DNA from: Atribacterota bacterium
GTDB taxonomy: Bacteria; Atribacterota; Phoenicimicrobiia; Phoenicimicrobiales; Stramentimicrobiaceae
NCBI GenBank assembly: GCA_040767965.1
Contig: JAXGNR010000006.1
Coordinates: 1 to 64,000, forward strand
Reading direction: 5' to 3'
DNA length: 64,000 nucleotides
Part shown: in pieces, positions 11,173 through 64,000 of the stretch
Layout: every line of letters begins with the position of its first letter
Position numbering within the stretch: position 1 is the first letter of the stretch
Made by a program: the position numbers and the translations under genes
Notes under the pieces: model-generated
The model's input: the letters and a program-made list of their open reading frames with translations, nothing else
What the model was told of the DNA's origin: nothing
Databases searched by the model: none

Positions 11173-12345
11173 ATGAAAACAAACATTAAAAGAAGGAAAT
11201 TGGGCAAAACAGGATTGATGGTATCAGAACTTAGCCTTGGCGCAATGAATTTACGATTATTAAAAAGCTTTGCTGAAGCCGAAGAAATGGTGAGTTTTGT
11301 TCTTGATCAGGGGATAAACCTTATTGATACCGCAAGAGCATACAAGGGAGAAATCGCACCAGGAATAACCCTGGAAAGCGAAGATATAGTAGGAAAGGTA
11401 ATTTCACAAAAAAATAATCTAGACGAGCCTATAGTCGTTATTACCAAAGGACATGCTTATACTATTCCTGAAATGGAAGAAGATCTAACTACAAGTCTAA
11501 AAACTTTACAAGTCACCGGAAAAGGCAATCTAAAAATTGGGGAAAACGATATCAAATTAATATACCTGATACATGGCCTCAGTGATGAAAGATGGACAAC
11601 AATCAAAGAATCTGGTGTGCTTGATGAATTGCAAAAATTAAAAAAAGAAGGGGTTATTAATTACATTGGATTTTCCAGCCATTATCCATTTGTTAAAGAA
11701 GTAAAAGAAGCAGTTGATCTGGGAATTTTTGATGTCGTAGAGCTGCCTTACAATATCTTTAACCGTACTTTTGGAGAAAACGGTGAATTGAATCTCTTTA
11801 AATATATCTATGGAAAAAATATTGGCATAATCAATATGAAAGCCTTTAATGGTAATGGAATGATTCCTCTTTTCCCTATAATAAAAGAATATGTTTCGAT
11901 TGATTATCAGGCCATGTTGCGGTTTTGTCTTTCAAATCCATACATTTCTACAGTAGATGCTGGTACAAAATATCCAAAAGAATTTTCTTCAGATATGCAG
12001 GTAGCAACCGGCAGCAGGTATACTGAACAGGAATTAATAGAAATGAGAAAAGAGGCTGACAAAGTAGCTCCACACCTGCAAAACATTTGTCGAAAATGTA
12101 TGCATTGTCAGGAAAAATTTACCTGCCCTAATGAAATTGATTTTCCAGAAATACTTTCCTTATATAACCATTATACTTTTCTTACCAGGGAAAACAAAGA
12201 TACAACTATGGTTATAAATAAATATAATCTACTTAGTAAAAATGGAGATGATTGTATAGAGTGCGGTGAATGCCTGCCGTGGTGTGAATACAAGTTAAAC
12301 ATCCCTGGTCTATTAAAAAAAGCACATGAAGTTTTAGGCAAATAA
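11173..12345 (+). CDS. Aldo/keto reductase with C-terminal Fe-S domain
   Basis: RRKLGKTGLMVSELSLG, IDTARAY, IGFSSH; CRKCMHC...CP and CIECGECLPWC. Confidence 0.9.
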   Translation: MKTNIKRRKLGKTGLMVSELSLGAMNLRLLKSFAEAEEMVSFVLDQGINLIDTARAYKGEIAPGITLESEDIVGKVISQKNNLDEPIVVITKGHAYTIPEMEEDLTTSLKTLQVTGKGNLKIGENDIKLIYLIHGLSDERWTTIKESGVLDELQKLKKEGVINYIGFSSHYPFVKEVKEAVDLGIFDVVELPYNIFNRTFGENGELNLFKYIYGKNIGIINMKAFNGNGMIPLFPIIKEYVSIDYQAMLRFCLSNPYISTVDAGTKYPKEFSSDMQVATGSRYTEQELIEMRKEADKVAPHLQNICRKCMHCQEKFTCPNEIDFPEILSLYNHYTFLTRENKDTTMVINKYNLLSKNGDDCIECGECLPWCEYKLNIPGLLKKAHEVLGK

Positions 12346-12390
12346 TAAATTCTACTTAATTTTAATTTAATATTATTACAAAAATCATAA

Positions 12391-12431
12391 GCCTTAGATT
12401 ATAGTTATATAAAATAATTACAATCTAAGGC
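12391..12431. terminator. Hairpin between convergent genes
   Basis: GCCTTAGATT / AATCTAAGGC inverted repeat. Confidence 0.6.
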
Positions 12432-20954: not shown

Positions 20955-22148
20955 CTAGTTACCTTTACCTCTGCCGGTTACTGGTATTACTCTTTCAAGA
21001 ATCCCATTCCTAACCCCATATAATTTCTCATGGACATTGATAGTACAGGTACTGTTATTAGGAATAATCTCCAATCTATCTCCAAGATGGAGTCTTGGTT
21101 TGCCAGGGTTCATGTAGTAAATATGAGCACTTTCTGCACTTAAATTTGCTGCCCGCAAATCTGGTCTTCCTTTAACAATGCCGAAGCTGGGCAATAAAGT
21201 TCCTTTATAGTTCCAGTAATAGTCCGGTTCATTAATAGCAGCCATCAAGTAATCCGGACAAAAAGCTTTATATCCTGCATCAATCATAAACCAATCCGGA
21301 TGGGTGGTACTCATTACTGTTACCAGCATACTTAAAGCGCAATCTTCAATTTTATTGCCACCATGTTTCCAATAAACTAAACTGCCGATAACAAAATTGC
21401 CGGGATGAAGTTCATTGACCTCAGGAAATTTACCTTCCTTTAGGTATTTACATGTATAAGGATATTGGGGTGAAGCGCCCACAGAAACATCATCTAAAAT
21501 CATTCCTATCTCCTGAAATTTCTTTGCAAGATTAGACATAATCTCAAGAGTTTTATAAGCGCTGGTATCAAGGGCTTTTTCAGTAGGTTCAACTCCCATT
21601 TCATGGGCATAAATACCAGCTATTTTAATATTGGGAAGTTGGGAGGCTTTCTTCCCTAATTCTAAGGCTTCCTCGTCAGTAGTAACACCATGCCTTTGAG
21701 AACCACCTACTATTATACTGGTGTCTATTTTTATGTTTAAAGGGACTTCTCTATCCACTTGTGCTGCAATCCTGGAAATCTGTTCTGCCTGTTCGTACAT
21801 ATCTATTACAATACTTATTTTGACATCTTTATTTAAAAGTATCCTTCTGAGGGTTTCACCTTTATGGGCTCCATAGTAGCCCGGGTGGGCAATTTTAATA
21901 TCTTTTATTCCTTCATTTACCATGCTTTCAGCCTGGGCAACTGGTCCTACTTCTACACCACAGGCACCTGCTGCAATTTGCATTCTGGCTATTTCAGCAC
22001 TTTCATGAATTTTAATATGCGGTCTTAAGCGTACGCCTGCTTCTTTAGCAAGACTGGACATTCTGTTTATATTTGCCTCCAGTTTATTAAGGTCTAAAAG
22101 TAATGATGGGGTATCTATGGTCGGATAGGGGATTTTATTTTTTGACAT
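20955..22148 (-). CDS. Fold-type III PLP enzyme, D-serine dehydratase / D-threonine aldolase (DSD1) family
   Basis: IDTPSLLLDL, LRPHIKIH (PLP Lys), ELHPGNF, IDAGYKA, GDRLEIIPN; start at ATG 22148 behind GGAGG. Confidence 0.85.
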   Translation of the reverse strand: MSKNKIPYPTIDTPSLLLDLNKLEANINRMSSLAKEAGVRLRPHIKIHESAEIARMQIAAGACGVEVGPVAQAESMVNEGIKDIKIAHPGYYGAHKGETLRRILLNKDVKISIVIDMYEQAEQISRIAAQVDREVPLNIKIDTSIIVGGSQRHGVTTDEEALELGKKASQLPNIKIAGIYAHEMGVEPTEKALDTSAYKTLEIMSNLAKKFQEIGMILDDVSVGASPQYPYTCKYLKEGKFPEVNELHPGNFVIGSLVYWKHGGNKIEDCALSMLVTVMSTTHPDWFMIDAGYKAFCPDYLMAAINEPDYYWNYKGTLLPSFGIVKGRPDLRAANLSAESAHIYYMNPGKPRLHLGDRLEIIPNNSTCTINVHEKLYGVRNGILERVIPVTGRGKGN

Positions 22149-22405
22149 TAGAATATTTTCCTCCTTATTAATTGAACGCATTTATCATTAATAGCATAAT
22201 GAAATTCTAGCAATTTATTTTATAATTAATTTGGCTGCTAAAGAAACTATCTAAATAATTTGATTTATATATTATTATTTGTCTAGTTTGATAAGATACC
22301 TGGCTAAAAAGTATCTATATTTGTTATTTATACCATCAATATTTTCGTATAAAAATTCAGAAATAAGGAGCTATAAAGTAGATAGTGTAAGAATGTAAAA
22401 TAAAA

Positions 22406-22511: not shown

Positions 22512-22822
22512 TTTTCTAATTTTGCTTTATCTAACCTAAAAATACTCACAAATTAATTAATATTATTATATAAAAAAGCATTCAAAATAGCCCTGCTTTA
22601 ATAATTAGAATATTCTGCGTCCTATACTAAAAACAAAGATTTAAAGATTTATTCAAAATAAAAGGAAAAAAGTAAAAGTAAAGAAAAAAGTAAAGAAATT
22701 TGTATAATAATATAAATCTTTAATAATTTTTCAGTAAATTTTCAGGACAGATATTTAATTATCCACTAAATTTTATTTTTAAATCCCTTATTCGCTTAGC
22801 TAACTAATCTTTTTTTAATTTT

Positions 22823-24084
22823 TCATGTAATATTTTTTTGATCTATACCAGAATATCTAGCATGAATTCCTAATTCCTGTTCAATCTGTAATAAACGATT
22901 ATATTTTGCATTTCTTTCACTTCTAACAGGTGAGCCACATTTAATTTGGTAAGCCCCTAATGCCACAGCTAAATCAGCAATAAAGTTATCATTTGTGTCA
23001 TTGGAACGCATAGAAACTGCTAATTTATAATTATTGTTTTTAGCCAATAATGCAGCGTCAAATGTTTCCATTAAAGTGCCAACCTGATTTATTTTTACTA
23101 ACAGACTATTGCATGCTTTTCCCTTAATTCCTTGGTAAATTCGAGAGCTATTTGTTGTAAATAGATCATCACCAACAATTTGTATGTTGTGTAAGTTTGA
23201 TGTTAGTAACGAAAATGATTCAAAATCATCTTCTTGAAATCCGTCTTCGATTAAAACCAAAGGATAATTTTTAGCTAATGAAATGTAATAATTAATCAAT
23301 TCATCTCTATTAATATTCTTTCCTGAAATTGTGTAACAATCATCTTTTTCGTTATACAATTCGTTTGCTGCAACATCCAGTCCAAGCGAGACCATACCAG
23401 AGTAACCAGCCTTTTCTATAGCTTTCAACAAAATATCAAAAGCCTCTTCATTACTCCTAATAGGAGGAGCATAGGCACCTCCTACATCTTGTAGAGATGT
23501 ATATTTGCTTTTCAAAATCAGTCCTAGGCAATAGTGAGTTTCTGAAAGGGCTTCTAGCGATTCCGAAAATTTTTCAAAACCATTCATTATAAGCATATAA
23601 TCTTCAAAATCTAGTTCCGAAGGAGAATATTTCCCACCTGCCAAAACAGTAGCTATCGGCATAGGAAGTCTGTTCATGATGATGCCACCAAGATATCTAT
23701 ACAAAGGTATATCACAAGAGTTACATGCGGCTTTGCAAATAGCTAAGGATGTTGCCAGAATAGCATTGCTACCTAAGTTACTCTTATCTTTTGTACCATC
23801 AAGATCAATTAATAAATTATCAATATATCTTTTTGATTCAATATTTCTTTTCCTATTAATTCTGGAGCAATAATGTTATTAATATTTTCTACAGCTTTTT
23901 TTACACCAAACCCTCTGAATCTATTCTCACCATCAAAAATTTCTCTTGCTTCATATTTCCCTTTTGAAGTTCCACTTGGGACAGAAGCTATCCCGCTTAT
24001 CCCACTATTAGTAATTACAGTTGCTTCAATTGTTGGAAGTCCATTACTATTCAATATTTCTCTAGCAAAAATATTTTTAATCAT
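22823..24084 (-). pseudogene. Enolase (phosphopyruvate hydratase) family paralogue with altered active site; one frameshift near 23830 (probably sequencing error)
   Basis: AREILNSNGLPTIE, VPSGTS, then shifted frame IDNLLIDLDGTKDKSNLGSNAIL continuing into 22823..23704 (DVAANE, IEDG, VGDDLF, LVKINQVG, RSERNAKYNRL). Confidence 0.88.
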
Positions 24085-24117
24085 CAATTTTTATACACCG
24101 ACTTTCTTTTTAATAAT

Positions 24118-25464
24118 TTATGGAATTATAATTACCCTCAAATTCATAACATTTGTTCCAGTATGACCAGTTATAATTACGTCTTTTAATTTAAGCAAAG
24201 CTTCTGAACTATTATGTTCGATTAAATATTTTGAAATATCTATCCCTAATTTTTTTGTTCTTTCTATTGTTTCTCCATCCACAATTCCTCCTGCAAAATC
24301 AGTTGGGCCATCTGTACCATCAGTATCAACAGAAATGCAAGAATAATTTTTTTTATTGCCCATTTTCTCAGCAAAAGCAAGAGCAAATTCCTGATTAGGA
24401 CCTCCATGACCTGAGATATTACCCACAGTAACCGTTGTCTCTCCTGCACTAATAATGGCAGCAGGATTAGAAAATGGCCTTTTGTATTTTATAATTTCTT
24501 TTGCAATACCTGCAAGACAAATCCCAACATCTTTAGCTTCTCCTTCGATATTTGTAGAAAGAATAATTGGTCTATATCCTAATTCATTAGCTTTTTGAGC
24601 TGCTGCCTCACAGGTACTAACAGGGCTACCAACAAAAATTATTTTTGAGTAAAATCCATCTAGGCTTTTTAATGTTTCTAGTTCTTTATCTTTTAAACTA
24701 TTTACCAAGTACGACTTAATTGATAAAGGTATTGTTTTCCATAAATTATATTTTTTTAGTATATCAATAGCATCTTGAAATGTAGAAGGATCCGGTAAAA
24801 CCATATCAGGCCATGGCATATCTTCAGGAGCAGTATCAAGAGTGAAGGTAATAACCTTTGCTGGGTGAGCATATTTCAATAAGCCACCCCCCTTTATTAA
24901 ACAAAGATGTTTTCTTACAGCATTGATTTCACTAATAATTGCTCCACTCTTTAATAATAAATCTGTTACTATCTGTAAATCCTCTAAATTGATATTTTTT
25001 GGTGGAAGAGCTGTTAAAGCAGAAGAGCCACCTGTAATTGCAGCTAGTATAATATCATTACTATCAGCTTCCTTTAATAATTTTAGAATTTTTTCTGCTC
25101 CTACAATACTATTCCTATCAGGCAGAGGATGTCCAGCCTCTATTACTTCTATTTTTTTTAATCTACGTTTATCACCATTCTTTACTACAGTAACCCCTTT
25201 ATAGATTAAATCTCCAAGCAATTCTTCTAACGCCTTTACTATAGAAAATGAACCCTTTCCAGTTCCCACTACAAAAATATTTCTTATTTTATTAATATCA
25301 TATTCTATTTCTGCTATTTTAAGTTTGTTGCCATCAATTTTTACCAAGTTGCATGTACCTTTTTCAGGATCTGCTTTTTCAATGCCTGATTTTATAATTT
25401 CCAGAGCAACACTTCTTAGTTTTTTTTGTCCTTGGGTTAAAAGTGTTGAAGAATTTTTTATCAC
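24118..25464 (-). CDS. Glycerate 2-kinase type II (DUF4147/MOFRL) family kinase, divergent
   Basis: GTGKG, AGHPLPD, ITGGSSAL, NAVRKHL..IKGG, GETTV, DTDGTDGPT, TGHTGTNV. Confidence 0.9.
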   Translation of the reverse strand: MIKNSSTLLTQGQKKLRSVALEIIKSGIEKADPEKGTCNLVKIDGNKLKIAEIEYDINKIRNIFVVGTGKGSFSIVKALEELLGDLIYKGVTVVKNGDKRRLKKIEVIEAGHPLPDRNSIVGAEKILKLLKEADSNDIILAAITGGSSALTALPPKNINLEDLQIVTDLLLKSGAIISEINAVRKHLCLIKGGGLLKYAHPAKVITFTLDTAPEDMPWPDMVLPDPSTFQDAIDILKKYNLWKTIPLSIKSYLVNSLKDKELETLKSLDGFYSKIIFVGSPVSTCEAAAQKANELGYRPIILSTNIEGEAKDVGICLAGIAKEIIKYKRPFSNPAAIISAGETTVTVGNISGHGGPNQEFALAFAEKMGNKKNYSCISVDTDGTDGPTDFAGGIVDGETIERTKKLGIDISKYLIEHNSSEALLKLKDVIITGHTGTNVMNLRVIIIP

Positions 25465-25543: not shown

Positions 25544-26806
25544 TTATAGAAAAGATGGTACTAAATTATTATTTTTATCAAAGTTTATTGAATTTAATTC
25601 ATCAGCTATACTTAAGTTATTTCTTTTTTTTGCCTCATGATATAAAGCCACTGAAACACATATTTTTTCAAGAGAAAGAGTATTTTTAATCCAAACCAAT
25701 TTTAATTTGCTTATATCTACCGGTCCAATAGTATTAAGACATGCCTCTATGGCCTCTTTATCATTAGGAAAATGCATTGGTATTGCTGCACTCTCCGGAC
25801 CAGAGGCTGTGAGGGCATTTATATACATTTTTTTTAGATCCAATTTTTTTACCAATTTTTCTGTTGTGAAATCTGCCATTCCAATACCTAATCCATTCCC
25901 CATAGATTCTTTTGTAATATCTCTCACAAATAATCTCTTTACTTTTTGTTCAGAATGCCATCTGTTCATTATATCTCTATTTCTACCAATAACATTAAAA
26001 TCCATTCCACCGCCACTAATTTCTTTACCAATTTCATCAATTATTAAAATATCAATATTTTTAAATGGTATCTTTGGTAAATTATCTTTTGCTATCAGTA
26101 AAAGTTCTTTCTCCTTATCTATTATATTAGTTGGTTCTATGGCTTCAATTATCGAGGTTTGGTCATATCCATCTTCTACTATTGCCAATCCAAACAAAAT
26201 AGGAAGTTTTTCTATGACATTTTGGGCAACTATTTCAAGTAATTCTGGAAAACCGTAGTGAAGAGCATATTTATGATAATATTGAGCGCCAATATGTTTT
26301 CCCATACCGATAGCCATCATTTTACACAAACCACTCTCAATAGAACCCTTCCATTTAGTATGAGGCTTTATCCTGTTTACTACAATAATATGGTCTGCTT
26401 CTAAGGCAATTTTATCTATATATATTGACAGTCCTTCTTTGGTTTTAGCTATTTCTTTTACTTCCATTGTGGCCATAATAGGAACATCCATAGATTCTTC
26501 ACTAATACCATAATCTTGGAGTATTTTTATTTGCCCTTCAGCAGTTGCACCTCCATGACTACCCATAGCAGGAAAAATAAAAGGATTGGCATTTAGAGAT
26601 TTAATATATTTAATTAATATTTTTACTATCTTGTCTATATTATTAATCCCTCTACTTCCTGCTGTAATAGCAACTTTGTCACCAGGATTTATTTTTGTCT
26701 CAAGATTCAAATAGTCTAGTTCTGCCTTTATTTTGGAAGACAAATCTAAAATTGGTTTATTTACTAGCTCTTGATGTATCAATCCCATTTGTATATTTTT
26801 TAACAT
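25544..26806 (-). CDS. Lactate racemase (LarA N-terminal / DUF2088) domain protein
   Basis: AITAGSRGI, PAMGSHGGATAEGQ, VNRIKPHT, ESGLCKMMAIGMGK, GKEISGGGMD, GNGLGIGMAD. Confidence 0.8.
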   Translation of the reverse strand: MLKNIQMGLIHQELVNKPILDLSSKIKAELDYLNLETKINPGDKVAITAGSRGINNIDKIVKILIKYIKSLNANPFIFPAMGSHGGATAEGQIKILQDYGISEESMDVPIMATMEVKEIAKTKEGLSIYIDKIALEADHIIVVNRIKPHTKWKGSIESGLCKMMAIGMGKHIGAQYYHKYALHYGFPELLEIVAQNVIEKLPILFGLAIVEDGYDQTSIIEAIEPTNIIDKEKELLLIAKDNLPKIPFKNIDILIIDEIGKEISGGGMDFNVIGRNRDIMNRWHSEQKVKRLFVRDITKESMGNGLGIGMADFTTEKLVKKLDLKKMYINALTASGPESAAIPMHFPNDKEAIEACLNTIGPVDISKLKLVWIKNTLSLEKICVSVALYHEAKKRNNLSIADELNSINFDKNNNLVPSFL

Positions 26807-26899: not shown

Positions 26900-28396
26900 T
26901 TATATTTTTCCTTTGTTTGCTATTTTTGTGGAAGTAATTAATACTAAAATAGACAAAATTATAAGCATTACAGATATTGTTCTAGTAAAAAATATTGACC
27001 AATCTCCACCACTAATAATTAACGAACGTCTAATTTGACTTTCTAACATTGGGCCTAGAATTAATCCTAATACTATAGGAGCCATTGGGAATTTTCCTCT
27101 AACCAATACATAACCAAAAAGTCCTAAAATTAAAGTCACCCATATATCGAAAAAATTATTCCGTAATGCATATGAACCAATTATGGAAAGAATAACTAAT
27201 AAAGGTGCTAAAAAATGTAAAGGTATTTTCAGTATTTGTACAAATACTCTAATTCCGAAATATTGAATTAACATCATGAAAATATTTGCCAATAAAATTA
27301 ATGTAAATAAACCAACGGCAAGATTTGGGTTTTTTGTAAAAAATTGAGGTCCAGGTTGCAATCCATGAATCATTAAGGCACCTAAAAGAACCGCAGTCGG
27401 ACTATCACCGGGAATACCTAAGGCTAGCAATGGAATTAAAGCTCCGCCGGTAACACCATTATTTGCTGCTTCAGAAGCAATAACTCCTTCTATATTTCCT
27501 TCACCAAATTCATTAGGATTTTTTGAAAATCTTTTTGCTTGATCATAAGCTAAAAATGAGCCAATATTTCCACCGGCTGCAGGTATCATACCAACGAATG
27601 TACCTATAATACTTGAACGAATTAAGTTGATTTTATTGTACCAAATTGAAGCTAACGTTGGTATTATTTTCATAGCATTTTCCCCTCTACCCACACTGAA
27701 CATTTGAACTTCATTCTGAGTTAAATTTTGTAATATTTGAGGAATTGCAAAAAATCCAATAAGTGCAGGCATAATACCTATTCCCCCCATAAGGTTTACA
27801 CTATTGAAAGTAAATCTAAGATTCCCAATTATTGGGTCAATGCCAATAACGGCTAGCCACAACCCAATCAATCCAGAAAATATGCCTTTAGCAATAGATT
27901 CTGCAGTAATTGAAGCAATAATTGTAAGCCCGAATAATGCTAAAGCTGCATACTCAGGTGGACCAAATCGTAAAGCAAATTTAGCAAGTTGCGGTGCAAC
28001 TGTAACCAATATTAACCAACTTATAAATCCTCCAAAAAAAGAAGCAGTTATCGCCCAACCTAAAGCTTGACTAGCTTTCCCCTTTTTAGCCATCGGATAA
28101 CCATCAAGGGTAGTAACAACAGAAGAAGGTGTTCCTGGAATATTTAAAAGAATTGCTGAAATTGCTCCTCCTGCTATCCCGCCAACGTAAACACCAATCA
28201 TCATGCCAATCGCTTGCACTTCAGGTAATGTAAATGTGACAGGAAGCAAAAGAGCAACACCCATCGTTGCTGTTAACCCTGGCATAGCACCAAATATTAA
28301 ACCCATAAATGTAGCTAAAAAAATACTCAATACATATATTGGGTTTAATAAAACATCAGTTACCATTTCTAAATAGGAAAATAATTGTATTTCCAT
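26900..28396 (-). CDS. tctA: Tripartite tricarboxylate transporter large permease
   Basis: GAMPGLTATMGVALL, ILLNIPGTP, DGYPMAKKG, SEAANN, LGIPGD, GLQPGP. Confidence 0.95.
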   Translation of the reverse strand: MEIQLFSYLEMVTDVLLNPIYVLSIFLATFMGLIFGAMPGLTATMGVALLLPVTFTLPEVQAIGMMIGVYVGGIAGGAISAILLNIPGTPSSVVTTLDGYPMAKKGKASQALGWAITASFFGGFISWLILVTVAPQLAKFALRFGPPEYAALALFGLTIIASITAESIAKGIFSGLIGLWLAVIGIDPIIGNLRFTFNSVNLMGGIGIMPALIGFFAIPQILQNLTQNEVQMFSVGRGENAMKIIPTLASIWYNKINLIRSSIIGTFVGMIPAAGGNIGSFLAYDQAKRFSKNPNEFGEGNIEGVIASEAANNGVTGGALIPLLALGIPGDSPTAVLLGALMIHGLQPGPQFFTKNPNLAVGLFTLILLANIFMMLIQYFGIRVFVQILKIPLHFLAPLLVILSIIGSYALRNNFFDIWVTLILGLFGYVLVRGKFPMAPIVLGLILGPMLESQIRRSLIISGGDWSIFFTRTISVMLIILSILVLITSTKIANKGKI

Positions 28397-28663: not shown

Positions 28664-29188
28664 TTATGGAAGTGGTACTGAAAAAATAGATTTAAATACG
28701 AAATTAATGCTTGAAATAATAATTAAAATCAAAATAAAGCTTTTAAATAAAAAAATTATTGTTAATTTGCTTTTAGGACATAACAATATAGAAGATCCCC
28801 ACATGAAAAACAAAGAAGAAACAACAAAACTTAATCTTTTCCACAAGCCAACATAAAGAACAATCAAAACTATAAATTCTATAGTTAGCACAGGTGTTTT
28901 GGGGAAAACATTCCAAACTAATTTAGCTAATTTTGATTTATTTTCTAGTTTTTTATCTAATTGATTATCATCTTTATTATTTATTTTATTTTTATATTGA
29001 GAAAAAAACAGTACACTATTGACTATAAGGATAGTTATAAAAATAAACATAGGGAATAACCATGGCCCCACACTACTCCGCTCTCCTGGCACTCTATATG
29101 TTGTTGCATTAAAAGCTATTATAGTAAAATATATCGCAAATATTGAAGTAATTAAAATAATTAATCTGGTTGCTACTTTTTCACTCAA
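28664..29188 (-). CDS. tctB: Tripartite tricarboxylate transporter small permease
   Basis: Four hydrophobic helices, VGPWLFP, C-terminal VPLP; between tctC and tctA; AAGGAG RBS with TTG start. Confidence 0.85.
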   Translation of the reverse strand: MSEKVATRLIILITSIFAIYFTIIAFNATTYRVPGERSSVGPWLFPMFIFITILIVNSVLFFSQYKNKINNKDDNQLDKKLENKSKLAKLVWNVFPKTPVLTIEFIVLIVLYVGLWKRLSFVVSSLFFMWGSSILLCPKSKLTIIFLFKSFILILIIISSINFVFKSIFSVPLP

Positions 29189-29282: not shown

Positions 29283-30260
29283 TTATAAAACTTCTTCAAT
29301 TATAGTCTTTAAAGATTGTTCTAAATCTTGTATAAATATATCCAACTCTTCACCTATAATAGGTTCGCTAATGATTCCCATGCTTTTCGCAAAATCCTGA
29401 AATTCTTCGTTTAAAATAGCTTTTTGGAATATTTCCCCTAATTTTGTTTTAACTTCTTCATCTAATCCTGCTGGGGCGGCAACAAAAGTTGATTGTACAG
29501 GTTCTCCATATGGAAAAACATTGTAACCTTTTTCTTTAAATGTAGGTACATCCGGGAAAAGATTCGTTCTTTCTTCTCTAAAAGTTGCTAATGGTATTAT
29601 TTCTCCTGACTCGAGCTGACTCCATGTTTCACCTGGTTTTAAAATTTGTGCTGCAATATGTCCACCTAATAAGCTGGCAAGGCATTTACTCCCCCCATCG
29701 AATGGGACATACCTTATTTCACTTTCTACACTTTTAGCCATACCAATTGCATCCATATGAGAAGTAGTTCCACTTCCAGAAGCACCAACTGTAAGAACTC
29801 CTGGGTTATTCTTAATATCTTCCATAAAATCTTCTATGTTTTTGTATTTTGAATCTGCCCTAACTGTAAGTAAATAAAAATCCTCAGACATTCTCGCTAT
29901 ATTGGTAAATTTATCAGTTCCCCAAGGAACCATTTTCTGTACTATCATACTTATTAGACTGCTTGAAGCAAGAGATACGGTGTAACCATCTGGTGCAGAT
30001 AATGTCATTTCTGTATTACCAACTACACTGCTAGCTCCTTCCCTATTAACAATTACTGTATCAACACCTTGGCTTTTTAAAATTGGTTGGAGTTTTCTCG
30101 CCATAACATCCGTGGATCCCCCTGGGGACCATGGGACAATAATTGTAATTGGCTTGCTTGGAAAATCACTCGCTATTACATTAAAAGTTGTAATTATACT
30201 TAACAAAAATACTAGACAAAGAAACATTCTTAATAAATAAATTAGATTCTTTTTAAACAT
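29283..30260 (-). CDS. tctC: Tripartite tricarboxylate transporter substrate-binding protein (Bug family)
   Basis: FPSKPITIIVPWSPGGSTD, PDGYT, VPFDGG, PDVPTFKEKG. Confidence 0.93.
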   Translation of the reverse strand: MFKKNLIYLLRMFLCLVFLLSIITTFNVIASDFPSKPITIIVPWSPGGSTDVMARKLQPILKSQGVDTVIVNREGASSVVGNTEMTLSAPDGYTVSLASSSLISMIVQKMVPWGTDKFTNIARMSEDFYLLTVRADSKYKNIEDFMEDIKNNPGVLTVGASGSGTTSHMDAIGMAKSVESEIRYVPFDGGSKCLASLLGGHIAAQILKPGETWSQLESGEIIPLATFREERTNLFPDVPTFKEKGYNVFPYGEPVQSTFVAAPAGLDEEVKTKLGEIFQKAILNEEFQDFAKSMGIISEPIIGEELDIFIQDLEQSLKTIIEEVL

Positions 30261-30555: not shown

Positions 30556-31245
30556 TTAAAGAGTATATTCTTTTTTACCAGAAACAATCATTTTTTCTAT
30601 AAGCTCTAAAATTGCTTTTTTAAAATTGTTAAGATGACTATGCATTGCTACATTTGCTTCACTAGGCTTTTTACTTAATAATCCATCAAAGATTTGAATA
30701 ACTTCTTCTCTGCTAAGTTCAATTCTTCTTTTTGTAAAATGTGCGGTTAAAAGGCGAGCTCGGTCAATCTTGTTTCTATATGATTCAATGATAATTGATA
30801 TCTCTTTGTTTCCACACAAATCCCATATTGTTTTATGAAGTATAAGATCAATCTCATATAACAAAGAAATTTTCTCTCTTTTTTCACCTTTAAAATTATC
30901 AAGTTTGTTGTAGCATTTTTTTAATAAAGACATTTCGCTTGATATTGGATTAATATTCATAGCTGCTTTTTCAGTGGCATAAGGTTCTAAAAGTAATCTT
31001 ATTTCACATATATTTTAATATCCTCATAAGAAATAGGTTTTACAAAAGTTCCTATTTGTGGCTTAACAACTATAAGATTTTCACTTTCAAGTTTAGAAAT
31101 TGCATGTTTAATTGGTGCTCCTGCTTACATTAAATTTTTTTGGAAATAATTGTTTCTGATAATTTTTCACCAGGCATAATCTTTAATGTTATTATTTCTT
31201 TTAAAAGCTTTTAAAGATATCATCAGCAATTGTATTTCTGCTCAT
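30556..31245 (-). pseudogene. GntR family regulator (HTH + FCD) with several frameshifts
   Basis: MSRNTIADDIF at 31245, then MPGEKLSE...FNVSR, PIKHAISKLESENLIVVKPQIGTFV in shifting frames; ORF 30556..30960 is the FCD domain (LH...CGN...MHSHL). Confidence 0.85.
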
Positions 31246-34123: not shown

Positions 34124-34613
34124 TTACCTCAACATAACATCCAGTATAGCCTGATCTGTAACAACCATTCCGGGATCACAGATATCACCTAAATTGTTAA
34201 ATAATTGTTTAAAATCAGGGCTGACTATTCCATCATTTTTATTAATAATTGCACCATGATAAGATAACAGCGCACTTTGTACTGCCCACCCGGCTGACAT
34301 GGCTAGCTTATAGGAACATCCCTCTTTGGCCCCATCGCAAATAATCCCTGAAACTGAACCAACCATATTGTAAAGAGAACCTAATATTTTATCTATTTTT
34401 CCACCTAAGAGATATACTACTCCTGCGCTTGCTCCGGTTCCTGCTGCTACCCCGCAACCACACATAGCAGATAGAGGTTTAGTATAGGATTTTATAAAAA
34501 ATGTAATAAGATTAGTTAATGCTAATGCTCTTAATAATTTTTCTAAAGAAATATGTTGCAGGCGATATCCCCTCTTTTAAAAGAGCAAGTAATATTTCTT
34601 CATTTTTTATCAT
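34124..34613 (-). pseudogene. YhaM/CdsB-like L-cysteine desulfidase (serine dehydratase alpha-like) with large internal deletion
   Basis: RBS AGGAG + MIKNEEILLALLKEGISPAT (family N-terminus, normally followed by GCTEP) joined out of frame to LLRALAL...LSAMCGC...GIICDGAKEGCSYK (C-terminus). Confidence 0.8.
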
Positions 34614-62005: not shown

Positions 62006-63264
62006 TAGCTTAATAGCAAATTTTTTGCTAATTTTTAAGCAGTAAAATAGTTAGAATCGGCATGCTCGGAGACTTTGGTAAAACACTAGCATCACAAACA
62101 TAAAGATTTTCAATTCTGTCTGTAAATTATCAACAATTTTACCAATTAACGTTCCTCCAGTGATGAGCTCCTGAATTTTAGAAAATAATATTGGACCATT
62201 AAAATCTCTTTTGCAATAGCTGATCCTTTCTTTAATCTTTGCCGATCCTTTTCGGTAATTGGTTTAGAAATTGTACTATTTGGATAAACATGGCCATTAG
62301 CTTCGTCACTAGTTTTGTTCATTATTCCAATCAGCCGGTTTATAGGTAAAGTAAGTCCTTTGGCTCCCAGTCGATATGAGCCTGACCATCGGATTAACAT
62401 TTATATATGTTGATAAAATAAAACCCTGTTTTTCATGAAATTCACTGCAAATTAAGGTCATAGCAGGTTCATCTTTTTGACTAATATTGGAAGTAACTCC
62501 ATAAGTATTAATGAACAAATCGACAAAGAGCCCTGATCCCGCTTTTAGAATTCCAGAATTTTGCAGTATAATCGGCGAACCTAAACCGCCAGCGGTCAGA
62601 ATAATTATATCGGCAAAATAATCTTTACTTCCGTTTTGCCCTATTGCCCTTACTCCTGTCGCTTTACCATTCTTTGAAAGAACCTGTTCTGCTGAAACAT
62701 TATATTCAATTTTAGCCCCATGTTCTAATGCTTGATCCAGATAATTTAAAGCTGTCCATTTAGCATCTTTAGTACAACCAAAGAACATTGGCCACATTTT
62801 TTGCATTTTTCAGGATCAACAAATTTCAGCATTGGTTGCATCTTATAGCCTAAAGTTTTTGCTGCTTTCATTATACTATTTGAACCTGTTGTTAAATATT
62901 TTTCAGGAAAAGGATTGATATTCATTTCTTTTTCAGTTTCAATAAACTCATCTTCCAGATCTAATCCCATATCCAGAAGTTCTTTTGTAAACAACGAGTC
63001 CTATTTCCGCAAGAAAAACCAAAGTAGATCCTCCAGCCATAATAGTCCTCCAGATAATAACACCTTCTTTTGATTTTTTAGGAATTCTTGTTAATCTGTT
63101 TACATCATAGAATCGAAGGGAATCCTGAAATGAACCTAATTTTTTTCATAGTTACCTTTTTCCAGAATAAATACTGAATGACCTTTCCTGCTCAACTCTT
63201 TTGCTATAGTTGATCCTCCAGCACCAGAGCCAATAATTAAAAAATCCCACCTTTTCTTTGTCAT
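62006..63264 (-). pseudogene. GMC family FAD oxidoreductase, multiple frameshifts
   Basis: FLIIGSGAGG, MAGGST, CKKCGQC..GC, LTAGGLGSPIILQNSG, LYVCDASVLP across shifting frames. Confidence 0.82.
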
Positions 63265-63384: not shown

Positions 63385-64000
63385 TTATTTTCCTTGTGTA
63401 ACATTTTTTTTTATTTTTTCCATAATAACAGGCAAATCTTTAACTGGAATTGAGGCTGACCAAAAATTAGCAGATGAAGATGCTGTAAAATTAAACATTT
63501 CAGATCCATTCCTGTGGCAGTCTTCCCAGGTTGATTGTTTTGTTATTATTTCTGTCAACTCTTCGTTTTGATAAAATTCAATCATTTGTGAACAAGTTCT
63601 AGGCCAAAAAGCTACCCTATAACCGAGAATATATTTTTTTGGAACAATATCAACTATTGTTTTGATAAATTCCAGATAGTGTTTGGGACCATGAGTTGCT
63701 AAAGCAATAATACCTCCCGGCTTAACCAATCTGACTATTTCTCTAAGCATTCTCTCCTGGTTTGGCACTAGACCAAATACCATGCTGGACAAAATAATAT
63801 CAAAAAAATTATCCTCAAAAGGAAGATTTTCAGCATCAGCCACTTTGTTTCAATTAAATTTAAAGGATAGCCATTAGTCTGAATTTTTTTCTTTTCAAAT
63901 CTCTATCATAAATTCAGATATATCTACTGCTGCTATTTTTTAGCTCCACCTGCTATTAACATCATGGATAAGATCCTTTAAGGCAACCTAAATCTAAAAT
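63385..64000 (-). pseudogene. Class I SAM-dependent methyltransferase, frameshifted and cut by window end
   Basis: ILDLGC at window end, VDISEFM, ADAENLPFEDNFFD, RLVKPGG. Confidence 0.75.

Follow-up and report, generated by a model that had tools for sequence, protein, structure and literature searches.

What reaction is left to an enolase whose enolate-forming residues are in place and whose residues for handling the leaving hydroxyl group have changed? This question is raised by an enolase-like gene on the minus strand of a 64,000-nucleotide stretch of an Atribacterota bacterium genome (the stretch, at its full length, is called the window, and the genome G000). An earlier note, made from the DNA letters alone, had described an enolase paralogue with changes clustered on the residues that handle the 3-hydroxyl, and had suggested new chemistry rather than random decay. 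Our analysis confirmed that this is a real gene, which by its sequence is a member of a conserved enolase subfamily, here named the Glu-Asp type. With a rough probability of 0.55, we propose that it encodes the step after a MOFRL-type kinase and acts on a 2-phospho-hydroxyacid other than ordinary 2-phosphoglycerate.

Active-site residues of the Glu-Asp type

Both enolase domains were found in the window gene, which is split into two reading frames as assembled (Table 1); the second piece consists of the end of the capping domain (Enolase_N) and the whole barrel. In a protein search, this C-terminal piece matched the window's own record at 100% identity and an intact homologue (P0004) at 73%; the latter passes the TIGR01060 enolase family score with 472 bits against a cut-off of 300. 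The motifs listed in the earlier note were all present in the translation, both the retained ones (DVAANE, IEDG, GDDL, LVKINQ and QIK, covering the metal ligands, the base lysine and the second lysine, together with the Arg-Ser pair) and the altered ones (AGGKY, FEDY, QDVGG and SMRSNDT). The protein also has the features that define the enolase superfamily, namely a barrel, metal ligands ending three successive strands and a base for the alpha proton of the carboxylate.

We then counted the active-site residues in 51 variant and 38 canonical clusters, all taken from one hit list obtained with the C-terminal 340 residues as the query; at least 51 clusters of intact homologues carry the same changes. 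These homologues are about 400-430 residues long and 49-73% identical to the window's C-terminal piece, while canonical enolases match it at 50% identity or less, overlapping the low end of the variant range. The closest homologues share the variant residues, not the canonical ones. The serine of the second metal, the three metal ligands, the base lysine (yeast Lys345, Mycobacterium tuberculosis Lys335), the Arg-Ser pair and the second lysine were kept in 51/51 variant and 38/38 canonical clusters, and the Asp, Glu, Asp and Ser of the metal site are present in the window gene as well. In contrast, Gln167 and Glu168 (yeast numbering, as below), invariant in the canonical clusters (38/38 each), were replaced by Glu and Asp, respectively, in 51/51 variant clusters, and His373 of the SHRSGE motif (38/38 in canonical clusters) was gone from all 51, giving way to Leu (30), Met (11), Val (6), Ile (3) or Ala (1). 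Both replacements had been pointed out in the earlier note, the window gene having Met at the His373 position. The Asn of Asn-Gly-Gly, also invariant in the canonical clusters (38/38), was Ala in 41 variant clusters, Ser in nine and Gly in one. The note had further listed His159 as changed, and the window gene indeed has Tyr there; however, this change does not define the family, because the position varies among its members (Tyr 20, His 19, Phe 12, against His in 38/38 canonical clusters).

The canonical acid (yeast Glu211, M. tuberculosis Glu204) was missing from the window gene in every alignment made. Its loss had been read from the GDEGG to QDVGG change, and this much stands; MAFFT and HMMER, however, aligned the loop with a two-residue deletion of Asp-Glu instead of a Glu to Val substitution, and a gap-free alignment gave Glu to Gly or Val. 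Across the family the acid loop is shortened or rewritten, and an acidic residue at most two positions before Gly-Gly was found in only 33 of the 51 variant clusters. Further family-specific shifts to lower polarity surround the catalytic residues: Thr to Leu beside the second lysine, and Ser to Phe or Tyr before the second metal ligand.

By motif, we take Lys335, Glu204, Glu163, His154, Ser42, Arg364 and Lys386 of the M. tuberculosis enolase to correspond to yeast Lys345, Glu211, Glu168, His159, Ser39, Arg374 and Lys396, respectively. According to the accessible part of a study of the M. tuberculosis enzyme, Lys335 takes the C2 proton and Glu204 performs the elimination; in the reverse reaction, water is activated by Glu163 and Glu204; His154 contacts the hydroxyl and phosphate of the substrate, Ser42 binds the second Mg2+, and the phosphate and carboxylate are held by Arg364 and Lys386, respectively (PMC10619443). 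One review (PMC8495383) gives a confused account of the mechanism and was set aside. Projected onto the Glu-Asp type, the half of the site predicted to handle the C2 proton and the 2-phospho-carboxylate is strictly conserved, and the half predicted to handle the 3-hydroxyl is replaced.

A single clade with low dN/dS

A tree of 62 rows was built with IQ-TREE, in which the Glu-Asp type was represented by 27 rows, the window gene plus 26 sampled clusters. These 27 rows, together with one paralogue of a relative, formed one clade with a Shimodaira-Hasegawa-like approximate likelihood ratio test (SH-aLRT) support of 99 and a stem of 0.33, in which the window gene was sister to P0004. The ratio of nonsynonymous to synonymous substitution rates (dN/dS; Nei-Gojobori, pairwise) between the window gene and its closest relative, that of metagenome locus L117, was 0.147, a value not near 1, with dS near saturation and the estimate blind to very recent loss. 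The relaxed selection expected of a pseudogene was not seen in this comparison. Ratios of 0.06-0.14 were obtained in the remaining diverged pairs, and 0.29-0.33 in two near-identical pairs with few changes. The ESM Atlas model of P0004 has a predicted template modelling score (pTM) of 0.95. The best PDB match was 2pa6 (409 bits); all 67 matches are named enolase or phosphopyruvate hydratase, and none could be recognised as belonging to the variant clade.

The changes are not random decay, because they are fixed in 51 intact clusters that fall into one clade with low dN/dS, and because the family has a conserved partner and natural fusions to it (see below). The earlier note was right on this point, whereas the new chemistry that it proposed, of a lyase or an epimerase, is something that we infer from the pattern of the residues.

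A third enolase-like group was observed among the matches (15 clusters, including P0055, P0059-P0062, P0066 and P0068), in which Glu substitutes for the His (SERSGE) and Leu occupies the His159 position. Eight of these 15 clusters were sampled in the tree and formed a clade of their own (SH-aLRT 98), apart from the Glu-Asp type. Second enolase paralogues (arCOG01169/arCOG01170), for which a functional shift was proposed, occur beside the canonical copy in Methanococci and Thermococci, as the available portion of PMC4390880 describes; unlike the gene studied here, they sit in the ribosomal superoperon. The His to Glu group may or may not correspond to these paralogues.

Divergent paralogues beside a canonical enolase

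A separate canonical enolase, which the earlier note had advised looking for, was found in G000 (2.33 Mb), where it scores 682 bits against TIGR01060. The three other genomes with the Glu-Asp type (G003, G380 and G444) each also hold a higher-scoring canonical eno gene, i.e., 4/4 genomes checked, and the Glu-Asp gene is therefore not redundant with glycolysis. In addition, G000 encodes six divergent enolase paralogues including the one studied here, each with different altered active-site residues. All six, like P0004, pass the cut-off of the "eno" equivalog TIGR01060, and annotation pipelines therefore name them phosphopyruvate hydratase. Metabolic models will consequently count such divergent paralogues as glycolytic enolases.

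All three MOFRL kinase loci of G000 adjoin a different divergent enolase paralogue. The two loci outside the window lie at C10:95887-98620 and C11:51374-54065, and one of their kinases is split into two open reading frames. A kinase/enolase-like pair was also observed in G003 (L154, G003:C44, 1295-3938), amid genes for a 2-oxoacid dehydrogenase, a short-chain dehydrogenase/reductase (SDR), an acetate-kinase-like protein, a phosphotransacylase and a TRAP transporter. At C5:113302-115637 of G000, the gene for an APH-type kinase overlaps by one base that for an enolase paralogue of another type (Gln-Asp, His to Ala), and a protein of that type, P0230 (745 residues), is a natural APH::enolase-like fusion. 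This APH-linked type looks like a second kinase-coupled enolase-like family.

Linkage and fusion to a MOFRL-type kinase

To what extent is the Glu-Asp type tied to its kinase? Metagenome loci were selected with a DNA pattern that encoded nothing but AGGxxSPSxLDFED[YF], a motif of the enolase-like protein, and 17 contigs were obtained. A MOFRL kinase, 52-72% identical to that of the window, was encoded directly upstream in 14/14 loci having upstream DNA; in the other three, the contig stops at the gene. The 14 include near-duplicates: L107 and L112 hardly differ, and L110 is 96-97% identical to both. With the window, G380 and G444, in which the kinase is likewise directly upstream, the count reached 17/18 loci overall; the sole exception was the more distant member in G003, without an adjoining kinase. 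A profile search of genome contigs with the family alignment returned 80 loci of canonical enolases, all at 49% identity or less, and provided no context.

The family profile was also run against 1.84 billion representatives. The second-best match (P0126, 908 residues) was a natural MOFRL::enolase-like fusion, in which DUF4147 and MOFRL (40-461) are followed by Enolase_N and Enolase_C (483-895). A search with P0126 brought the number of such fusions to seven 90%-identity clusters (866-917 residues, 51 member sequences), all of which bear the variant motifs. Among the 150 best representatives, 103 had the fully canonical signature, 13 were of the Glu-Asp type and 14 of the Gln-Asp type, with Ala, Gly or Ile at the position of the His; the base lysine was kept in nearly all 150. 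In two further proteins (P0281 and P0282), a kinase 56% identical to the kinase part of P0126 is fused to a D-2-hydroxyacid dehydrogenase. The longest contigs of P0281 and of the enolase-like P0041 are both 132,211 in length, and the two may be neighbours.

The Glu-Asp type is sparsely distributed, occurring in 2/86 genomes of the window's phylum (G000 and G003) and in 2/401 genomes of another phylum (G380 and G444). The full seven-gene cassette of the window is also carried by G444 (L158 = G444:C1), where it is flanked at 900-2500 and 11200-12400 by MazEF, an rve integrase, a transposase helix-turn-helix gene and ParE, which suggests that the cassette moves as a unit. Because of this sparse occurrence and these transposase and toxin-antitoxin genes, the cassette appears mobile and self-contained. 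Genes for a tripartite tricarboxylate-type (TTT) importer occur with the kinase and the enolase-like gene at six loci (the window, L109, part of it in L111, L117, L157 and L158). They are missing from L101, L104, L108 and L114, for which part of the upstream DNA is available. A LarA homologue occupies the same position in four loci (the window, L111, L117 and L158). The downstream genes differ among loci and encode a lactate permease, a D-2-hydroxyacid dehydrogenase or oxidoreductases.

A possible two-enzyme route for 2-hydroxyacids

In the reading that we favour, the gene would be part of a small, horizontally spread catabolic cassette that comprises a regulator, an importer, sometimes a LarA-type racemase, the kinase and the enolase-like enzyme. 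The kinase would form a 2-phospho-D-2-hydroxyacid that is glycerate-like yet not ordinary 2-phospho-D-glycerate, and the enolase-like enzyme would make a metal-stabilised enolate via its retained lysine. A beta substituent that needs no canonical acid would then be expelled, or the new Glu-Asp pair would serve instead, and the product, phosphoenolpyruvate (PEP) or a close homologue, would enter central metabolism. Such a kinase-lyase module would handle a glycerate-like 2-hydroxyacid that, once phosphorylated, is not a substrate of the housekeeping enolase. We propose this two-step account as the simplest one because the enolate-forming half of the site is conserved, the gene is linked or fused to the kinase, and it is retained beside a canonical enolase. 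A clade that keeps the enolate-forming half, replaces the dehydrating half and is welded to a kinase suggests an unrecognised catabolic reaction and a two-enzyme pathway.

Candidate substrates, in their phosphorylated form, are tartrate, sulfolactate, mercaptolactate, isoserine and a C4 dihydroxy acid, each with PEP or a homologue as the product. The sulfolactate variant (2-phospho-3-sulfolactate to PEP and sulfite) is disfavoured in this genome and was kept as one candidate among several. No sulfite-handling gene recurs beside the cassette loci, and neither G000 nor G003 yielded a sulfite reductase of the NIR_SIR type. More generally, and at somewhat under even odds, the enolase subgroup may contain several kinase-coupled families (Glu-Asp with MOFRL, Gln-Asp with APH) that follow a general route of phosphorylating the 2-hydroxyl and then eliminating; the Glu-Asp family would in that case catalyse a reaction that has as yet no Enzyme Commission (EC) number, a beta loss from a 2-phospho-3-substituted acid other than that of the 2-phosphoglycerate hydroxyl.

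Compared with enolase itself (EC 4.2.1.11; TIGR01060, PF03952 and PF00113), the clade has the same two-domain fold at about 45-50% identity and the same metal ligands, base lysine, phosphate-binding Arg-Ser pair and second lysine. Unlike enolase, it is without the acid Glu, has Glu-Asp for Gln-Glu and a hydrophobic residue for the His, and lies by a kinase in a catabolic cassette rather than in a glycolytic or ribosomal context, in hosts with a separate canonical enolase. Mandelate racemase, muconate lactonising enzyme, o-succinylbenzoate synthase and methylaspartate ammonia-lyase use the same enolate chemistry for other outcomes; they are members of other subgroups, differ in their capping domains and bind no 2-phosphate. 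The window protein probably resembles them in that a lysine makes a metal-stabilised enolate, followed by a different beta loss or a reprotonation, and differs from them as a sequence member of the enolase subgroup, which, to our knowledge, is commonly treated as single-function. Enolase itself ranks among the most thoroughly studied enzymes. In the non-phosphorylative branch of the Entner-Doudoroff pathway, as covered in the accessible text of PMC2063504, a class II glycerate 2-kinase of the MOFRL type is followed by enolase. There, as proposed here, the product of a MOFRL kinase, phosphorylated at the 2-hydroxyl, passes to an enzyme of the enolase type; unlike here, that enzyme is the housekeeping enolase and not a dedicated, altered paralogue linked or fused to the kinase. 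No account of the Glu-Asp clade or of its pairing with MOFRL was found in the literature, supplementary tables not being covered. Likewise, the available parts of the LarA literature (PMC7583248, PMC11770544, PMC12611868 and PMC11796402) contain no substrate of group 22 and no Glu-Asp clade, the gene-context supplements of PMC7583248 not being covered.

Several points weigh against the favoured reading. The D-2-hydroxyacid dehydrogenases that neighbour the gene or are fused to the kinase, and the lactate permease, fit plain glycerate metabolism, whose product would be the normal substrate of enolase; the window's kinase is fairly close to archaeal (PH0495, 340 bits) and Thermotoga (244 bits) relatives of glycerate 2-kinase. 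The invariant new Glu-Asp pair could be a replacement for the lost acid, and the new reaction itself is what we infer. Furthermore, the cassette looks partly degraded in this genome: the assembled enolase-like gene has a frameshift, the regulator gene is broken twice, and no LarC for the LarA cofactor was found in G000, which is 98% complete. The contigs that carry an intact allele are also short (257 and 151 bases) and of low depth (2-3).

The frame break in the assembled copy

Is the window's own copy still alive? The gene starts with the ATG at 24084 in a frame spanning 23809-24087, which stops at a TAA seven codons beyond the break; the second frame is open over 22823-23875. The region 22700-24300 was compared with Logan contigs of four runs (X1-X4) from four studies, all of which gave pieces identical to the window within it. 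The sole insertion or deletion reported was two letters left out at 23830, the left end of the T5 run on the plus strand (A5 in the gene), and the samples of X1 and X3 therefore have A3. Only these two runs span the site, and both lack the two bases: the X1 contig has 257 bases (23783-24041) and the X3 contig 151 bases (23754-23906), and neither differs otherwise from the window. Despite the low depth of X1 and X3, two studies agree on the intact allele, and dropping 23830-23831 by script yielded a single open frame of 419 codons. Reads confirming the frameshift, together with a dN/dS near 1, would have told against the earlier note; contigs of other runs instead span the site without it. With the intact allele occurring in other samples, the break reflects either an error of assembly or a lesion that arose very recently at strain level.

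These data bear on the alternative that, with a genuine insertion and a decaying cassette, this copy is dead in its strain, whatever the family does. We consider this unlikely, though still a serious prospect. In its favour, the assembled sequence does contain the break, the regulator gene of this operon has two breaks of its own, a search of the 98% complete genome found no LarC, and a split MOFRL gene and an enolase fragment lie elsewhere in that genome. However, the same DNA without the two bases comes from two independent studies, the break sits in a homopolymer, the TctC, TctA, LarA and MOFRL genes are intact, and dN/dS is 0.147; moreover, other gene fragments in the window indicate that indel errors or scattered lesions reach beyond this operon. 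A further metagenome copy of the enolase-like gene (L108, 2147-3411) was also observed to be split into two frames, near its 3' end.

Alternative functions

The main competitor as to function is an ordinary enolase isozyme that converts 2-phospho-D-glycerate to PEP for imported glycerate, with the Glu-Asp pair as the acid, which we rate as a minority possibility and rather unlikely. It agrees with a partner from the glycerate 2-kinase family, with a D-2-hydroxyacid dehydrogenase that adjoins the gene or is fused to the kinase, with a score above the TIGR01060 eno cut-off (472 vs 300), and with Glu and Asp being invariant at the Gln-Glu position; in addition, some LarA homologues racemise glycerate, according to the accessible part of PMC11770544. 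On the contrary, the canonical acid Glu and the His are missing in 51/51 clusters, and 4/4 hosts already have a canonical enolase and still keep the gene with, or fused to, the kinase under purifying selection. The three MOFRL kinases of the window's genome, each by a different divergent paralogue, also do not readily fit three glycerate pathways.

That the protein racemises or epimerises a 2-phospho-2-hydroxyacid, with exchange of the C2 proton and no elimination, seems improbable. Such an activity would agree with the retention of the base lysine and of the enolate-stabilising metal site, with the lower polarity of the leaving-group side (His to Leu/Met, Thr to Leu, Ser to Phe/Tyr and Asn to Ala), and with 1,1-proton transfer as a classic enolase-superfamily reaction. 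Nevertheless, the opposite face shows no evident second base that is conserved, a LarA-type racemase acting before phosphorylation is already part of several cassettes, and a further enzyme would be needed after the epimer, none being conserved. A non-catalytic protein that keeps only the enolase fold, and serves to sense a ligand or to support the kinase structurally, would account for the fusions and for the lost textbook catalytic residues; we regard it as very improbable in view of the metal ligands, base lysine, Arg-Ser pair and second lysine, whose invariance in 51/51 clusters is the signature of a working active site. Least credible is a programmed -1 ribosomal frameshift joining the two frames at the A run, which we rejected: a -1 shift at CAA-AAA-G would bring back the downstream frame, but there is no X-XXY-YYZ heptamer in the zero frame at the site, the homologues are single open frames, and the two bases are simply absent from other samples.

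Other genes of the cassette and its surroundings

The cassette of the window encodes, in the direction of transcription on the minus strand, a GntR/FCD regulator, TctC, TctB, TctA, a LarA homologue, the MOFRL/DUF4147 kinase and the enolase-like protein (Table 1). The kinase gene ends 33 bases upstream of the enolase-like start; its product has both domains and scores 237 bits against 550 and 176 bits against 670 for two glycerate 2-kinase equivalog cut-offs. In the whole G000 genome, neither LarC (TIGR00299, PF01969) nor LarE was found above the cut-off, although the LarA group-22 gene is intact; LarC is present in G380 and G444. The PDB matches of TctC gave no clue to its ligand, and the LarA-like protein had no PDB match. 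The L117 orthologue of the regulator is one frame of 226 codons, and in a tblastn search with it the match fell in frames -1, -3 and -2 of the window.

Table 1 Positions of the cassette and neighbouring genes in the window, and of enolase genes on other contigs (C5, C10 and C11) of G000
Feature	Position	Strand	Remarks
Enolase-like gene, whole	22823-24084	minus	split into two reading frames
Enolase-like gene, N-terminal 91 codons, first frame	23809..24084	minus	Enolase_N 5e-27 (Pfam, profile 1-87 of 131)
Enolase-like gene, C-terminal 340 codons, second frame	22823..23845	minus	Enolase_C 1.8e-87 (Pfam, profile 4-293 of 296)
A5 run (T5 on plus strand) with two surplus bases, source of the frame break	23830..23834	minus	two letters absent from one contig each of runs X1 and X3
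MOFRL/DUF4147 kinase (glycerate 2-kinase family), intact	24118..25464	minus	DUF4147 6e-60, MOFRL 4e-34
LarA homologue, nickel-pincer isomerase group 22, intact	25544..26806	minus	Lar_N 7e-9; NF052515 516 bits, cut-off 400
TctA	26900-28396	minus	tripartite tricarboxylate-type importer
TctB	28664-29188	minus	tripartite tricarboxylate-type importer
TctC	29283-30260	minus	tripartite tricarboxylate-type importer
GntR/FCD regulator	30586..31210	minus	three frames, two breaks at A-rich runs; FCD domain in last piece
Pyridoxal phosphate (PLP) enzyme, D-serine-dehydratase/D-threonine-aldolase type	20955..22181	minus	Ala_racemase_N and D-ser_dehydrat
Canonical enolase of G000	C5:208975-210252		682 bits against TIGR01060
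Divergent enolase paralogue of G000	C5:114339-115637		
Divergent enolase paralogue of G000	C10:10808-12064		
Divergent enolase paralogue of G000	C10:83928-85211		
Divergent enolase paralogue of G000	C10:95887-97161		
Divergent enolase paralogue of G000	C11:51374-52636		
Enolase fragment of G000	C10:83026-83262		

The PLP enzyme downstream probably forms a separate unit. It scores 143 bits against a cut-off of 690 for BhcC, is separated from the enolase-like gene by a 641-base gap, and adjoins that gene in none of the other loci. The best promoter-like match falls within this gap, at 22511-22482, and such matches are here no commoner than chance. A promoter and terminator scan of the operon gave counts no higher than in shuffles, and therefore no operon boundaries were drawn. 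Lastly, truncated pieces of a serine dehydratase alpha chain (34124-34465), a GMC oxidoreductase (62309-62806) and a methyltransferase (63385-63843) were observed in the window, and gene fragments are therefore not limited to the cassette.

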